Below, piece by piece: positions 44,046-50,673 of a stretch of 64,000 nucleotides of DNA (position 1 is the stretch's first letter; every line of letters starts with the position of its first letter). Made by a program: the position numbers and the translations under genes. Location: NCBI GenBank assembly GCA_963749655.1, contig CAVVOB010000035.1, positions 1 through 64,000 on the forward strand. The letters are read 5' to 3'. The stretch is from Nitrospirota bacterium. GTDB lineage: Bacteria; Nitrospirota; UBA9217. Below the pieces are notes generated by a model. That model saw only the letters and a list, made by a program, of their open reading frames with translations, was not told where the DNA came from and made no database searches.

Positions 44046-46253
44046 TCACTCCTTCGCCCCTGCAGCCCGCAGGACCTGCGCCATCCCGGCATATTCTTTC
44101 TCCTTCGCAAACCGCAAGGCGGAATAGCCGCTCTTGCTCCGGGCGTTCACATTCGCGCCTTTGTCCAGGAGTAATTTCACCGCCTCCGTATGGCCCTTGG
44201 ATGCCGCATTCATCAGCGCCGTGTACCCGTTTATTTTTTTCGCATTTACGTCCGCCCCTTTTTCGAGGAGAAGTTTTATCAGTTCCGTGCGTCCAAAAAC
44301 CGATGCCCCCATCAGGGGCGTGAACCCTTCCTTCGTATGCGCGTTTACGTCTGCTCCTTTTTCAATCAGGAGTTTTGCCGCGTCGTTTTCATAGAATGTG
44401 GCGACAATAAGAGCCGTGTGGCCGTCCTGGTCATATACTGCATTAAGGTTCGCCCCCTTGCCCAGGAGCAGGTTTACCATCCCGAGCTGTCCTTTGCTTA
44501 CGGCGGCCGTCAGCGGAGTATATGTGTTCTCCTCCGACGTGTCCCTGGCCTTGCCGTTGATATCCGCGCCGTGTTCAATCAGAAAGGACACTGTTTCGGA
44601 ATTATCTCCGAAAGCCGCCCATATAAGAGCGGGCATGCCGTTATATTTATCCCGCGCGACCGCTTTCGCATCTTTACTCACAAGAGACTCGATTGCGCCC
44701 CTGTCTCCTTCCATGGTCGCCCAAAGAAGAGGAGGGACGCCCTTGATGTTCTTGGCGGCGCCGCTTTTCAAAAGGATCCGGACCGTCTTCATTTCATGAT
44801 CTTTCAGCGCATGGAGTAAAGGCGTCAGCTCTGTACTGTTCCGGATATCGAGGTTCGCGCCCTTCTCCGCCAGCAAATTGACAATATCGAAATGTTTGGC
44901 ATCGGATGCATGGAAGACGGCGGTCGCGTTTATGATATTCTTTGCATCAAGGTCGGCGCCCTTGTCGATCAGCAGTTTGACAAATTCAATGTTGCCCTTC
45001 TCTGCCGCTATCATAAGCGCCGTTGCCGCGTCGATTCTGCTCTGAGCGTTGATCTTCGCTCCTTTTTCGAGAAGAAGCCCGCCTATTTCCGGGTTTCCGC
45101 CCTCCGCTGCGAACATCAACGCGGAACAATCGCCGTCCTCGAGCTTTGCGCCCTTGTCGAGGAGATAGCGCACGAGATCCACATGTCCAAGCAGGGCTGA
45201 CAGCTTCAGGGCCGTAGTTCTTGTGCGCTCCTGTTTTTCTACATAGCTTTGTTCCCCATGGCTTTCGTCCGCAGGGGCGGCCCCATCCGCCTCGACTGCA
45301 TCGACATTGACGCCCTTTTCCACCAGGAACCGGACCCCTTCGAAATTGCCGTTCCTGGCCAGGTTGATCAACCCGGTGCCGGCATGCTCCGATTTCGGAT
45401 TGAAGACCACGCCGTTTTCCATCAATACGTTCATGGCACCTGCGTTTCCCGAACGTAAGGCGAACATGAATGCCGTCTTTCCCGCCTTATTTTTCCGGTT
45501 GATGTCGATGTTTTTTGCGATCAGATACTTGATGGATTCTGAGGTGCCACTTTGGGCGGCAAGTATAAGGACGGTATTGCCCTTCTTGTCCAGGGCTTTC
45601 ACGTCGGCCCCTTTTTCAACGAGAAGCTTTATGGTGTCCGGATTTCCGTTCTCGGCCGCCATCAGGAGAGGCGTTGCTCCGTTCATTTTCGGGTCGATCT
45701 GTGCGCCCTTCGCGAGAAGCGCCTCTGCCGTCCCGGCGAATCCGCCTGCCGCCGCAGCCGCCAGGGCCGTCCAGCCGTTCAGATATTGCTTTTTCTTCAT
45801 TTCGTCGTTGAGCGCCTGAACGGAGCGTTTGGACGCTGATTTCAGAGCGGTTATGCTGTCGGATTGCGGCTGGGTAAAGGGGCTTAAAACGGTATTTACT
45901 TCGCCGTGCATGGTTTTCCAGAATGCATCTACCGCGGCCCTGTCCATTCCCTCGACATCAATGATGGAGGCTTTGGCATTCGGGTCAGCGCCCTTCTCCA
46001 GCAGAAGCTTCACGACTTCGGTGCGGCCCCGGGACGCCGCGATCATCAGGACCGTACAGTCTTTGCACTCGGCGGTGGCGGTCCTTGTGTCCGGCTTCGC
46101 TCCTTTTTCCAGAAGCGCGGCCACCCCAGCGACATCGCCGCCGCCCGCCGCTGCCGTCAATTGATCGCCGATGGATGCTCCAAACACCGTGAGCGGCGAA
46201 AGACAAAGGAAAACCACTGCGATACACATTCGTTTCATTGAAGGCCTCCTCAT
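44046..46253 (-). CDS. Exported ankyrin-repeat protein
   Basis: Signal peptide; many G.T(P/A)L..A...G....VKLLLEKGADVNA repeats. Confidence 0.95.
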   Translation of the reverse strand: MRRPSMKRMCIAVVFLCLSPLTVFGASIGDQLTAAAGGGDVAGVAALLEKGAKPDTRTATAECKDCTVLMIAASRGRTEVVKLLLEKGADPNAKASIIDVEGMDRAAVDAFWKTMHGEVNTVLSPFTQPQSDSITALKSASKRSVQALNDEMKKKQYLNGWTALAAAAAGGFAGTAEALLAKGAQIDPKMNGATPLLMAAENGNPDTIKLLVEKGADVKALDKKGNTVLILAAQSGTSESIKYLIAKNIDINRKNKAGKTAFMFALRSGNAGAMNVLMENGVVFNPKSEHAGTGLINLARNGNFEGVRFLVEKGVNVDAVEADGAAPADESHGEQSYVEKQERTRTTALKLSALLGHVDLVRYLLDKGAKLEDGDCSALMFAAEGGNPEIGGLLLEKGAKINAQSRIDAATALMIAAEKGNIEFVKLLIDKGADLDAKNIINATAVFHASDAKHFDIVNLLAEKGANLDIRNSTELTPLLHALKDHEMKTVRILLKSGAAKNIKGVPPLLWATMEGDRGAIESLVSKDAKAVARDKYNGMPALIWAAFGDNSETVSFLIEHGADINGKARDTSEENTYTPLTAAVSKGQLGMVNLLLGKGANLNAVYDQDGHTALIVATFYENDAAKLLIEKGADVNAHTKEGFTPLMGASVFGRTELIKLLLEKGADVNAKKINGYTALMNAASKGHTEAVKLLLDKGANVNARSKSGYSALRFAKEKEYAGMAQVLRAAGAKE

Positions 46254-46652: not shown

Positions 46653-48138
46653 TTACCCTTTCGCCACCCGGATGAGCGTATTGTTCTCGTTCATGCCGTC
46701 GATGATGGCGCCGAGGCCGGCCATGTTCTGCAGGTAGTCGATGGCGTCCCGGGAGATCTCCTCTCCGGGGACGAGGAGCGGGATGCCGGGAGGGTAGACG
46801 GTCACGATCTCGGTCGAAACCCTTCCCGCGGAATGATTGACGCTCACCAGCTCGCTGTCGGAATAGAAGGCCTTGCGCGGGGTCATGGCAAAGCGGTTCT
46901 GGAGCATGGGAGGATGGACCTTGTCCAGGGGGAGCAGGGCGCCCTGGAGTCCCGTTTCAGCGGAAATCACCTGCAGCGCCTCGACAAGGCGGTTCAGGTC
47001 GTCCTGCCGGTCGCCGATCGAGACGATCACCAAGACGTGAAAGGGATCGGCCATCTCGACCTGGATCCCGAAGCGGTTGTTCAGCACATGGGAGACGTGG
47101 TAGCCCGACAGCCCGAGGTCCGAGACCGTGATCGTGAGCTTGGTCACGTCCATGTCGGCCATGCCCACCTGTTTTGCCCGGTCCTTGCCGAAGCAGGAGA
47201 TGCCGGGGATCTTGTCGATCGCGGCCCTGGCGTCTTCGGCCAGCTTGATCGTCCGGTTCAGGAGCTTTTTCCCCTCCGTGGCCATCTGCATGCGCGCCAG
47301 GTCGAGGGACGCCATGAGGATGTAGGACGGGCTGGTCGTCTGGAGGAGCTTCAGGGTGTTGGTGACGTCGTCGATGTTGATCCTGCCCGCTTTCGCGTGG
47401 AGCATGGACGCCTGGGTCATGCCGCCCACGATCTTGTGGGTCGACTGGACGCACATGTCCGCTCCGGCCTCCAGGGCGCACATGAGGGAGCTTGGAATTG
47501 AACTTGAGGTGCGGGCCGTGCGCTTCGTCTACGAAGACCAGGAGGCCCTTCTCGCGCGCGTAGGGGATGATCCTCTCGATGTCCGCGCAGAGTCCGTAGT
47601 AGTTCGGGCTGGTGATGAGCAGCGCCCGGGCGCCCGGATTGTCGTCGATGGCGGCCCTGGCCGCCTCGAAGGTGATGTTCAGGGTCATTTTGAGATCGCG
47701 GTCGAAAACCGGCTGGAAAAAGATCGGCTGGGCCCCGCTCATGATGAGCCCGGTCAGAACGGACCGGTGGCAGTTCCTGGCGATCAGGACCTTGTCCCCG
47801 GGTCCGGTCATGGACGCGACCATGGCATGGTTGCCGACGGTCGTTCCGTTCACCAGGAAATAGGACCGGTCCGCCCCGGCTGCTTTGGCGGCCAGTTCCT
47901 GGGCTTCCTTGATCACGCCGGTGGGGTTCTGCAGGGAGTCTACTTCGTCGAGGGTCGTCAGGTCGATGGAAAATATTCTGGGCCCCACGAACTTGCGGAA
48001 CCGGGTGGAAATGCCCTTGCCGCTCTTGTGTCCGGGGGTATGGAAGGAAACCTTGCGGCTCTCCGCAAGATTGACCATGGCGTCAAACAGGGGTGTGCGG
48101 AACTGCTCATCCTCGAATCGTGAAGGAGGAGGATTCAT
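46653..48138 (-). CDS. PLP-dependent Orn/Lys/Arg decarboxylase (Bacillus SpeA-like); frameshift near 47485
   Basis: FHTPGHK, FLVNGTT, RNCHRS, PNYYG, VDEAHG; QSTHK (PLP lysine), TTSPSY, YPPGIP. Confidence 0.92.
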
Positions 48139-48143
48139 GGCCT

Positions 48144-49064
48144 CTAGTGGTACGTGAAGAGGGGGGCGTTGTCCTCTATGATCTTCGTCTCTTCAGCCAT
48201 GGCTTTGCGTATATGCTTGGGGAGCATATACATGCCCTGGTTCGTGATGCCGTCATAGTACCGGCACTCGCCCTTGATCCGCTTCTTGATCAGTTCATCC
48301 ACGTGCTGGGGCGTGAACTTGCTCGGGTCGAGGTTCTTGGAAGCCAGGGTGAAGCCCCAGGGAAGACCGAATGACGGGATGCACACGTTGTAAGGGGTCA
48401 CCACGGGGAAAACGGCGTTGAGTGTCTTGTTTACGGCCGTGAAGTTCAAAAGCTGGTGCAGGGCCGTGGTGCCGGCCTGGAGGGCGATGGTGCCGTCCGG
48501 CGTGAGACGCTCTTTTACGATCTCGTAGAACTCGCGGGTGAACAGGAGGTAGGCGGGGCCTTCCTCGACCGGTTCGGAAATATCGATGATAATGGCATCA
48601 TAGCTGTCGGTGGTTTCTTCCAGGTACTTGCGGGCGTCCATGTACCGGAGGTCGGTCCGCGGATCGTCGAATGCGCCCTGGTGCCACTCGGGCAGCAGTT
48701 CCTTGGACTTTTCAACCACTTCCTGGTCTATGTCCACCATCATGCAGTACTCGACGCTCTTGTGGCGGAGCACTTCGCGCAGCGTGGCGCCTTCGCCGCC
48801 GCCGACGATAAAGACCCGTTTGGGGTTCGGATGGGTCAAAAGAGCAGGATGGACCAGTGCCTCATGGTAAATGAACTCGTCGGTGAGGGACGACTGCATC
48901 TTGCCGTCCAGAACGAGGCACCGGCCGTAGCTCCCGCTTTCCATGATTTCCATGTTCTGGTACTTGGTCTGGCTCGCGTAATGAATGGTACGAATCCCGT
49001 GGATATGGCCTTCCTGGGGACTCGTATATTCGATGAACCACTTGTAGCTCTTGGGTTCGATCAT
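48144..49064 (-). CDS. speE: Spermidine synthase / polyamine aminopropyltransferase
   Basis: LVLDG, DEFIYHEALVHP, VFIVGGGEGATLREV, VDID, YDAIIID. Confidence 0.95.
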   Translation of the reverse strand: MIEPKSYKWFIEYTSPQEGHIHGIRTIHYASQTKYQNMEIMESGSYGRCLVLDGKMQSSLTDEFIYHEALVHPALLTHPNPKRVFIVGGGEGATLREVLRHKSVEYCMMVDIDQEVVEKSKELLPEWHQGAFDDPRTDLRYMDARKYLEETTDSYDAIIIDISEPVEEGPAYLLFTREFYEIVKERLTPDGTIALQAGTTALHQLLNFTAVNKTLNAVFPVVTPYNVCIPSFGLPWGFTLASKNLDPSKFTPQHVDELIKKRIKGECRYYDGITNQGMYMLPKHIRKAMAEETKIIEDNAPLFTYH

Positions 49065-49462
49065 GCGGTGACCAGTTCGGCCTGCGCCATGGGTTTATGG
49101 GGAAGCTTTGCCTGGCCCAGGATGCCCCGCTTCATCTCGATGATGGAGGGGTTTTTGGATTCGAATTTTTCGATCAGGAATTTTGCGGCGACCCGGGGGT
49201 CGATAAGGTCTCCGCAGGTGAAGACATCGACGGCAGCATAGCCGTATTCCGGCCAGGTGTGGATGGCAAGGTGGGATTCGGCGATGACCACCATCCCGCT
49301 GATGCCAAAGGGGCTGAATTCGTGGAAAGCGACTTCAACAATGGTCGCCTTTGCCTCAAGGGCTGCATTTTTGAGTGTTTCCTGTACAAACTCTAAGTTG
49401 CCCAGGGTTTTGGAGTTGCATTCCCGCAGCTCCAACAAGAGGTGAGTCCCCAACGCGTGCAA
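49061..49462 (-). CDS. speD: S-adenosylmethionine decarboxylase proenzyme
   Basis: AAGGAGG then TTG at 49462; GTHLLLE, FHEFSPFGISG, AESHLAIHTWPE, AVDVFTCG. Confidence 0.95.
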   Translation of the reverse strand: MHALGTHLLLELRECNSKTLGNLEFVQETLKNAALEAKATIVEVAFHEFSPFGISGMVVIAESHLAIHTWPEYGYAAVDVFTCGDLIDPRVAAKFLIEKFESKNPSIIEMKRGILGQAKLPHKPMAQAELVTA

Positions 49463-49483
49463 CCTGTTTACCTCCTTCTCCGC

Positions 49484-49590
49484 CCGCCGAACCAACTTCT
49501 CCCTGTTCGGGAGATCCTGCGAGCACCGCCCTCCGTTCCCACGGAAGGGATTGCTGTTCGAATCCAACCCGCCTCGACTTCAGACGGCGC
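49484..49590 (-). ncRNA. Candidate structured cis-regulatory leader (SAM-I-like four-way junction) of the speD operon
   Basis: Four helices found by eye, AGCAAUC...GGUGCU P3-like motif, located between a TTGACA element (49637-49642) and the RBS. Confidence 0.5.
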
Positions 49591-50010
49591 CAACAACATC
49601 AAAAACTAGTTTTCATTTATCAAAATTACAACTCTTTGTCAAGAATAAAAACTCTCGGGCCTCATTTTTTTTCGAGAGCGTCCGGCGTCGCGCTGAGACT
49701 GCCCGGGAAATCCCTCCGACGCGGCGCGAACAGCGTCTTCGGGACCATTTTTTTGAAGCGCAATATACTCTTTTTTACATCAATTGCAAGAGAAAATTAG
49801 CGGAGGAGAAAAAAAACTTTACAACCATCCCCGACTGACTTAAAATGCCTTTCACGCAGAGACCGCGAAGACGCAGAGAGCTTTAGCGCGGAGCCGGCGA
49901 AAGGGGGAATCGGAGAGTGCAGGCGACCGCCGGAATTTTCACGCTGTTGCTCCGGTTTCCCCTTGCGTACTCCGTATCCGGTAAATTTCGTTTTGTTTCA
50001 GGAGGCTTTC

Positions 50011-50673
50011 ATGTCATCCGGCCAAAAAGGCTTCGTCGAAATCGCTTCCGTGCTCGTCAATCCCGAGATCTTCACCCGTCCCTACACCTGCGACGTGGAA
50101 AAATACGGCTGCAAGTCCATGTGCTGCTACCGGTCCTGCATCGTGCCTCCCCAGGAGGCGGAAAAGGTCGAGAAGCACCTCGACGGGATCCTCGCCTACC
50201 TGTCCCCGGAGAACCGCGAGGCGATCAAAAAGAACGGGTCCATCCTCGGAAACTGCAAGACCCAGTGCCCCACGGGCTGCGTGATCCACGAGGACGAGGC
50301 CCAGGCCATCCGCCGGAACTTCGGCGGCCAGGACTTCCGCTGCGTGCTGCTGTTCAACAACGACTGCGCCCTGATCTACACCAACAAGGAGGGCATGCGG
50401 TACTGCAGCGTGCACAGCTACGCCATCGAAAAGGGCATGGTCTGGGAGGAGTTCAAGTTCGCCGACTGTGTCCAGTACCCCCTTTCCTTCTATACGACCG
50501 AGGGCGGGAAGAAGGTGCTCTCGATCCAGGACACGCCTTTCCTGAGCCATATCAAGTGCATGACCGATCCATCCGGCGAACCCATGTATAAGAGCCTCAA
50601 GAGGACCATCGAGACCTACATGGGCAAGGATTTCTATAAAGCGCTGGAAGCGTACGCGGCAAAGAGAAAGTAA
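50011..50673 (+). CDS. DUF3109-like Cys-rich protein
   Basis: AGGAGG-ATG; IFT..Y.CD...CK..CC, CAL, YCSVHSYA, KFADCVQYP. Confidence 0.65.
   Translation: MSSGQKGFVEIASVLVNPEIFTRPYTCDVEKYGCKSMCCYRSCIVPPQEAEKVEKHLDGILAYLSPENREAIKKNGSILGNCKTQCPTGCVIHEDEAQAIRRNFGGQDFRCVLLFNNDCALIYTNKEGMRYCSVHSYAIEKGMVWEEFKFADCVQYPLSFYTTEGGKKVLSIQDTPFLSHIKCMTDPSGEPMYKSLKRTIETYMGKDFYKALEAYAAKRK

Follow-up and report, generated by a model that had tools for sequence, protein, structure and literature searches.

Which RNA precedes speD in this Nitrospirota lineage, and how might it act on the genes behind it? In the stretch of DNA analysed (64,000 nt, hereafter referred to as the window), speD is preceded by a leader that an earlier note had read, from the sequence alone, as a divergent SAM-I-like four-way junction and a riboswitch acting on translation. 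The locus is organised as follows.

49963-50673, plus strand: DUF3109 gene with a cysteine-rich product, divergent from the speD promoter region
49614-49642, minus strand: putative promoter, with a -35 box TTGACA (49642-49637), a 17-nt spacer and TGATAAATG with TAAATG at 49619-49614
49463-49607, minus strand: structured 5' UTR (leader) of speD-speE-decarboxylase, about 145 nt
49460-49480, minus strand: GAG, Shine-Dalgarno sequence AAGGAGG, spacer and TTG start, in columns (nearly) invariant across the lineage
49462-49061, minus strand: speD (Pfam PF02675, AdoMet_dc, E 1.7e-39)
49064-48144, minus strand: speE (Pfam PF01564), the start ATG of which overlaps the speD stop as ATGA
48138-46653, minus strand: Orn/Lys/Arg decarboxylase gene (Pfam PF01276), in two frames in this assembly
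46653-49462, minus strand: putative regulated operon speD-speE-decarboxylase, from the Pfam matches and a gene order as in relatives' loci

The Shine-Dalgarno sequence (49477-49471), an 8-nt spacer (UAAACAGG) and the TTG start codon (49462-49460) are found on the minus strand, in agreement with the earlier note, which had placed a weak TTG start of speD behind AAGGAGG. All 57 leaders have the TTG codon with M(H/Q)ALGTHLLLE after it. The speD-speE pair was retained in all 34 relatives' loci examined, as was the order of the divergent DUF3109 gene, speD and speE (34/34). The decarboxylase gene is split between two overlapping frames on the minus strand (46957-48138 and 46653-47483), which match positions 1-215 and 233-416 of the Pfam profile, respectively; the frameshift, near 47480, means that the gene is either broken or wrongly assembled. 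Some 400 nt beyond the downstream end of the operon, the minus strand encodes a 735-aa protein consisting almost wholly of ankyrin repeats (44046-46253).

The TTGACA sequence is a perfect -35 box, about 150 nt upstream of speD, and both TTGACA and a TTTTGATAAAT-like box were retained in 20 aligned relatives. A consensus promoter scanner did not call the TTGACA/TAAATG site, because its second hexamer does not end in T. From this putative promoter, we infer a transcription start near 49607. A short inverted repeat lies directly after GATAAAT (49590-49614, minus strand) and occurs at the same place in relatives, with arms that change in concert between genera (for example, ACAAC..GUUGU, CACACU..AGUGUG and GGAAA..UUUCC). 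Repeats of at least five pairs, with G-U pairs allowed, were present in 39 of 83 distinct 5' regions, versus 20.6 +/- 3.8 in shuffles; the corresponding figures for Watson-Crick pairs only were 16 (of the same 83) and 9.2 +/- 2.7. The repeat could be a fifth hairpin, at the 5' end of the RNA, or a DNA operator; if it is an RNA hairpin, transcription would start earlier than the position given above.

An A-run and a T-run, both conserved across genera, flank a variable hairpin (GAAAAAAAAUGAG...UUUUUAUU) just upstream of the -35 box (49643-49690, minus strand), an arrangement suggestive of either a bidirectional terminator-like hairpin or an UP element. Matches from other genera start at about 49680 (query positions 121-130, with one short match at 308) and run into speD, so the DNA upstream of the promoter is not conserved or alignable there. 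The leader is 69-79% identical over these matches (93% for one short match). Metatranscriptome contigs from four RNA-library runs, belonging to relatives at 85-99% likeness, cover speD, and those of one run extend from speD into the leader up to 49549, with DNA carry-over being possible; these contigs give no transcript ends, and the parts that they leave uncovered are uninformative.

Comparison between relatives makes it nearly certain that the leader is a conserved RNA folded into a row of hairpins: H1, P3 with its GNGA loop, and a long hairpin consisting of P4a and P4. The elements of this fold are as follows.

49569-49587, minus strand: hairpin H1, CCGUCU (49587-49582) with AGGCGG (49574-49569) and a 7-nt loop
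49549-49568, minus strand: linker J1, conserved at its ends (RUUGG on the 5' side, ARC on the 3' side), its pairing unsupported
49529-49548, minus strand: hairpin P3, pyrimidine arm CCUUCCGU (49548-49541), GGGA loop (49540-49537) and arm ACGGAGGG (49536-49529)
49481-49525, minus strand: long hairpin P4a/P4, in which P4a is UGCUCGC (49525-49519) with GCGGGCG (49487-49481), followed inwards by an internal loop and P4
49514-49498, minus strand: P4, UCUCCC (49514-49509), GAACA loop and GGGAGA (49503-49498)

H1, P3 and P4a were predicted, with compensatory changes, by RNAalifold from a MAFFT alignment of 23 leaders, independently of any covariance model; a covariance model was built from the same alignment, with P4 added. 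The leader sets comprised 57 leaders from 56 genomes and 70 more that a DNA pattern retrieved from metagenome contigs and that all matched the model. Standard pairs were formed in 97.0% of cells for the 57 genome leaders, 97.3% for the 60 distinct metagenome leaders and 97.1% for the 90 distinct leaders, with 16, 17 and 17 of the 27 pairs, respectively, changed on both sides; these three alignments were fitted to the covariance model and are hence biased towards it, whereas the RNAalifold prediction was unfitted. None of 500 column shuffles equalled the observed fold, and the share of paired cells fell to 44-52% when registers were shifted. In a mutual-information scan with average-product correction, all the strong signals fell inside the four helices.

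Among the 90 distinct leaders, five of the six H1 pairs changed on both sides (96.5% of cells paired), compensatory changes were found for five of the eight P3 pairs (98.2% of cells paired), and all six P4 pairs covaried. In P4a, one pair changed from CG to UA in 19 of 90 leaders, with four one-sided compatible changes and 99.4% of cells paired. The pyrimidine arm of P3 has the consensus CCCUYCCG, and its 3' arm, ACGGAGGG, is purine-rich and resembles a Shine-Dalgarno sequence. The P3 loop is GNGA at a level of at least 90% in the consensus, the loops of H1 and P4 being variable. P4a ends 3 nt before the Shine-Dalgarno sequence and is followed by GAGAAGGAGG, with no U run; the Shine-Dalgarno sequence and the start codon lie outside all four helices of the conserved fold.

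Folded on its own, the window sequence was not unusually stable (MFE -52.3 kcal/mol, z -1.46, with 13 of 200 shuffles as good), and the case for structure therefore rests on comparison. P4a had a mean pair probability of only 0.28 in single-sequence ensembles, despite its covariation, a result compatible with a helix needing extra stabilisation, such as might come from tertiary contacts or a ligand. Alternative partners of the H1 5' arm were rejected: two registers with the P4a 3' arm and one with the AGGCGG after P3 had ensemble probabilities of 0.03, 0.11 and 0.05 and no covariation. J1 gave no signal in the mutual-information scan; a hairpin inside it (UUGG with YYAR before CCC) was set aside as unsupported, with 64% of cells paired versus 34-53% in shifted registers. 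Pairing of J1 (CGRAC, GAUUC) with the 3' side of the P4 internal loop was likewise discarded: its register shifts between genera, and there was no signal for such pairings in the covariation or mutual-information scans.

The leader is confined to one uncultured class-level lineage of Nitrospirota. A DNA search of 41 related genomes detected it in 22 of the 24 genomes of the same family and in none of the 16 genomes of other families. With the covariance model, the motif was found in 56 of the 64 genomes of the family, including 31 of the 32 of high quality, in one copy each except for one genome with two; in the genome collection searched, this family is the whole class, class and family searches returning the same 64 genomes. 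The leader lay before speD in 57 of 57 cases, always with a TTG start. None of 123 other Nitrospirota genomes contained the motif at E 0.1 or better (seven noise matches scored 17.7-20.6 bits), and 91 of these 123 genomes have an AdoMet_dc (speD) gene. With one genome taken per prokaryote species, an exact-pattern scan yielded 38 loci, 33 of which were confirmed by the model at 116 bits or more; the records concerned are titled Nitrospirota or Nitrospirae, save one MAG titled Betaproteobacteria. The five pattern matches outside Nitrospirota were rejected as chance matches (at most 14.7 bits with the covariance model, or no score).

Two individual records call for comment. The leader of the Betaproteobacteria-titled MAG scored 166.8 bits, equal to the score of one genome of the window's genus, which suggests a mislabelled or mis-binned record. 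The family genome with two copies carries two different leader and speD pairs on two contigs, corresponding to a paralogue or to contamination (the genome is about 4% contaminated).

Sister Nitrospirota lineages have short speD leaders containing one or two small hairpins, and their speD genes begin with TTG or GTG. These leaders resemble the leader described here in their non-AUG start and purine-rich Shine-Dalgarno sequence, and one family has a similar 5' segment and spacer, but they lack the H1-P3-P4 core of about 109 nt. When the model was run unfiltered on ten speD loci of other Nitrospirota families, two of these loci aligned, at about 19 bits, and only with the first 27 and the final 19 model positions; in both, 14 nt occupy the place of the 109-nt core. 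As only the end segments align in these sister loci, the H1-P3-P4 module looks like a lineage-specific addition, to the extent that so weak an alignment can suggest one. Comparison with the short leaders would thereby offer a view of a structured regulatory module added to an existing leader. In one sister family, a UCUC(C)..GGAG(G) hairpin overlaps the Shine-Dalgarno sequence.

Judging from sequence comparison, the leader is most likely a new cis-acting translational regulator. The mechanism that we prefer, with a probability of roughly 0.35, is that of a riboswitch for a product of the polyamine pathway, operating as a translational feedback switch, with the ligand predicted. The leader would control initiation at a strong Shine-Dalgarno sequence paired with a weak TTG start, and ligand binding would turn translation off; the ligand would be a pathway product, spermidine or a related polyamine, with dcSAM a less likely candidate. 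Without ligand, the pyrimidine arm of P3 would stay paired to the Shine-Dalgarno-like arm, leaving the true Shine-Dalgarno sequence and the start codon open. In the bound state, the bases at the foot of P3, ARCC and CCUYC, would be redirected to the GGUU at the start codon and/or to the GGAGG of the Shine-Dalgarno sequence, and this re-pairing would close a junction around the ribosome-binding site. The earlier proposal of a riboswitch acting on translation thus survives in part: a structured, probably regulatory RNA does precede the speD ribosome-binding site and is a credible candidate, whereas the relation to SAM-I is unsupported.

Several features argue for such a riboswitch. The consensus has about 35 conserved unpaired bases in its linkers and loops, with no conserved upstream ORF and no terminator; in a scan of 49300-50100, no intrinsic terminator was found on the leader strand, and the sole terminator-like site was on the plus strand, inside speD (49347-49363). 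The leader is conserved between genera while the upstream DNA is not alignable, which points to selection. P4a covaries yet is predicted to be marginal, as would be expected of a helix needing a tertiary or ligand contribution. There is also a precedent, in the spermidine riboswitch that controls speD, speE and speB in Bacillota (PMC10853860). On the other hand, a row of hairpins with no proven multi-helix junction is less typical of metabolite aptamers, and the narrow distribution of the leader and the conservation of sequence inside its helices fit a protein-binding site equally well.

The pairings proposed for the switch itself are widely available. CCUYC:GGAGG can form in 99.3% of cells and ARCC:GGUU, which overlaps the start codon, in 97.2%. 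The latter was also proposed by RNAalifold with ribosum scoring and would close a three-way junction, with the Shine-Dalgarno sequence in a junction strand; when the Shine-Dalgarno sequence was forced to pair or the helix arms were blocked, RNAalifold returned only these two pairings. Neither displays covariation (500 of 500 shuffles equalled the observed value), because the Shine-Dalgarno/start region is invariant and hence uninformative in this respect; thermodynamic ensembles assign each of them a probability of about 0.00-0.01, which weighs against the switch. In four leaders of one genus, GGUUG has become GAUUG, with ARCC uncompensated, and in the window itself ARCC is AUCC, such that only three of the four pairs form with GGUU. 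The pyrimidine arm of P3 was the best partner of the Shine-Dalgarno sequence in only 62 of 103 leaders (-8.1 kcal/mol, versus -7.6 kcal/mol for the best other segment). Shine-Dalgarno accessibility averaged 0.53 in single-sequence ensembles, a value that is uninformative.

More tentatively, the leader could represent a new class of riboswitch for a polyamine compound or dcSAM, unrelated to the SAM-I-derived class, that emerged within this uncultured class of Nitrospirota when a module of about 109 nt was inserted into an ancestral short leader, and in which a ligand-stabilised three-way junction (ARCC:GGUU, P3 and P4a) captures the Shine-Dalgarno sequence and the TTG codon.

It is rather doubtful that the leader is instead the binding site of a trans-acting factor (an RNA-binding protein, the 30S subunit or a small RNA), with no small-molecule aptamer. 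A protein of this kind might be a pathway enzyme acting on its own mRNA; binding beside the Shine-Dalgarno sequence would repress or activate initiation, with three GGCGG-type purine blocks, or the hairpins, as the recognition elements. In H1, in P4a and at the foot of P3, conservation is high for the sequence as well as for the pairing, and AGGCGG occurs after H1 and again after P3, with GGCGGGCGG before the Shine-Dalgarno sequence; these repeated blocks are, however, largely explained as strands of covarying helices. Tandem hairpins and restriction to one lineage are common in protein-bound leaders, but here P3 alone has a conserved loop, those of H1 and P4 being variable. The synteny of the divergent DUF3109 gene in 34 of 34 loci would fit this reading, but may reflect plain conservation of gene order.

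A constitutive structural leader with no sensor, which would determine how stable the mRNA is or keep initiation at a fixed low rate through a structured standby site and the TTG codon, seems unlikely. It would account for the position of the Shine-Dalgarno sequence and TTG codon outside all four helices, no alternative pairing has comparative support, and the non-AUG starts and small hairpins before speD in sister lineages suggest some general tuning. Short leaders nevertheless suffice in those lineages, and the usual needs of tuning or stability are well exceeded by a core of about 109 nt that maintains four helices and many conserved unpaired bases and is combined with an invariant spacer. 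If the leader is protein-bound or constitutive, it would be an ordinary lineage-specific leader. A leader peptide encoded by an upstream ORF, as in eukaryotic AdoMetDC mRNAs or bacterial speFL, is highly improbable. In the window and in its genus, an ATG at leader position 16 does begin a frame of about 43 codons, but, with ATG starts only being considered, 16 of the 57 leaders lack one and the others differ in frame, peptide and stop. The lengths of P4 and J1 also change by numbers not divisible by three, and the compensatory changes point to selection on RNA pairing.

We attach a similarly negligible probability to the SAM-I-like four-way junction of the earlier note, with its helices P1-P4 and a pseudoknot between the P2 loop and J3/4, and to the divergent kinship with SAM-I or the spermidine variant that it implied. 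All the strings quoted in support of that model are indeed found on the minus strand at 49484-49590, and two of its elements are present as drawn and covary: P4 (UCUCCC-GAACA-GGGAGA, 49514-49498) and the inner hairpin of P3 (CCUUCCGU-GGGA-ACGGAGGG, 49548-49529). The outer part of P3 (AGCAAUC/GGUGCU) had no comparative support, nor did P2 (UCGAG/UUCGA) or P1 (CCGuCUGAA/UUCGGCGG). The strands of P1, P2 and outer P3 can be written as pairs in the window sequence, and the inner four pairs of P1 are compatible in most leaders, though mostly invariant. Over the 57 leaders, however, the 18 pairs of these three helices formed in 67.2% of cells, a value equalled by 151 of 500 column shuffles, and their covariation score was reached by 124 of 500. 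The P1 register had an ensemble probability of 0.03.

The strands in question belong to other helices. The 5' strand of P1 pairs with AGGCGG in H1, and its 3' strand with UGCUCGC in P4a. A G-to-A change in GCGGGCG is matched by a C-to-U change in UGCUCGC, giving the UA pair of 19 of the 90 distinct leaders, whereas in the earlier P1 the same G-to-A change is uncompensated, leaving that pair unpaired in 10 of 57 leaders. The bases assigned to the GCG/CGC pseudoknot lie in the 3' arm of H1 (96.5% paired) and the 5' arm of P4a (99.4% paired). Since H1 and P4a, which covary, take up the strands of the earlier P1, the leader forms hairpins in a row rather than a four-way junction. The covariation among relatives' speD leaders that the earlier note proposed to look for does exist (97.1% of cells paired, 17 of 27 pairs compensatory), in this other fold; the search with SAM-family covariance models that it also proposed gave no SAM match in the window, the leader or the loci of 20 relatives.

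The speD leader resembles no catalogued RNA family (Rfam 15). At the gathering score, no family was found in the whole 64,000-nt window. At E values up to 10, the region 49350-49900 gave no riboswitch and no SAM family, its four chance-level matches being a PyrG leader, two snoRNAs and Methylosinus-1, and at E values up to 5, nothing was found on the leader in the loci of 20 relatives. No Rfam 15 model match on the leader thus speaks for kinship with SAM-I, SAM-I/IV, SAM-IV or the spermidine variant. A link to SAM-I (Rfam RF00162) is offered by the use of SAM by SpeD, and the GC-rich hairpin of the leader, with its purine-rich 3' arm followed by GGUGC, presumably recalls P3 of SAM-I in a superficial manner. 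Unlike SAM-I, SAM-I/IV and SAM-IV, the leader has no match at E values up to 10, and P1, P2 and the pseudoknot fail the comparative test; the kink-turn of SAM-I P2 was not evident in the earlier reading of the sequence either. The preferred riboswitch would have in common with SAM-III/SMK box, SAM-VI, SAM-II/V and SAM-SAH a possible control at initiation, with the ribosome-binding site beside or inside the folded domain. These aptamers are much smaller and have other folds; the leader has no Rfam match to them, and enclosure of its Shine-Dalgarno sequence is hypothetical.

It is reasonable to regard this element as a well-supported, uncatalogued, lineage-specific structured leader and a riboswitch candidate. 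No description of a speD leader motif in Nitrospirota was found in full-text searches of the main text of non-subscription articles. A study of Hfq in B. subtilis only lists an uncharacterised speD leader peak (PMC3574147). The ldcC motif (Weinberg et al. 2017; PMC5737381) is an orphan 5' UTR motif before arginine, ornithine or SAM decarboxylase genes, thought to be tied to polyamine homeostasis. Its gene context is like that of the Nitrospirota leader, the comparison being by description only; no match named ldcC was among the Rfam 15 matches of the leader or of the loci of 20 relatives.

A close parallel is the spermidine riboswitch, a rare SAM-I variant confined to Bacillota and, according to Salvail et al. 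(2023; PMC10853860), the only polyamine riboswitch to have been demonstrated convincingly. It is described there as a close four-stem variant of SAM-I, with 13 representatives, all from Bacillota genera and found by SAM-I searches, with altered bases in J1/2 and the P3 internal loop relative to the SAM-I consensus, and acting through an intrinsic terminator, by transcription termination (PMC10853860). The Nitrospirota leader is like this riboswitch in lying in the 5' UTR of polyamine genes, including speD and speE, and in the expected logic of a feedback OFF switch; it is unlike it in having no SAM-I match, no four-way junction and no terminator, and in adjoining the Shine-Dalgarno sequence (PMC10853860). 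An independent RNA dedicated to speD in another phylum would show how uncultured Nitrospirota control polyamine synthesis, and at about 145 nt it is compact and directly testable for ligand binding. The Nitrospirota leader has its gene context in common with the spermidine riboswitch and the ldcC motif, but appears to differ from them in fold, model match and expression platform.
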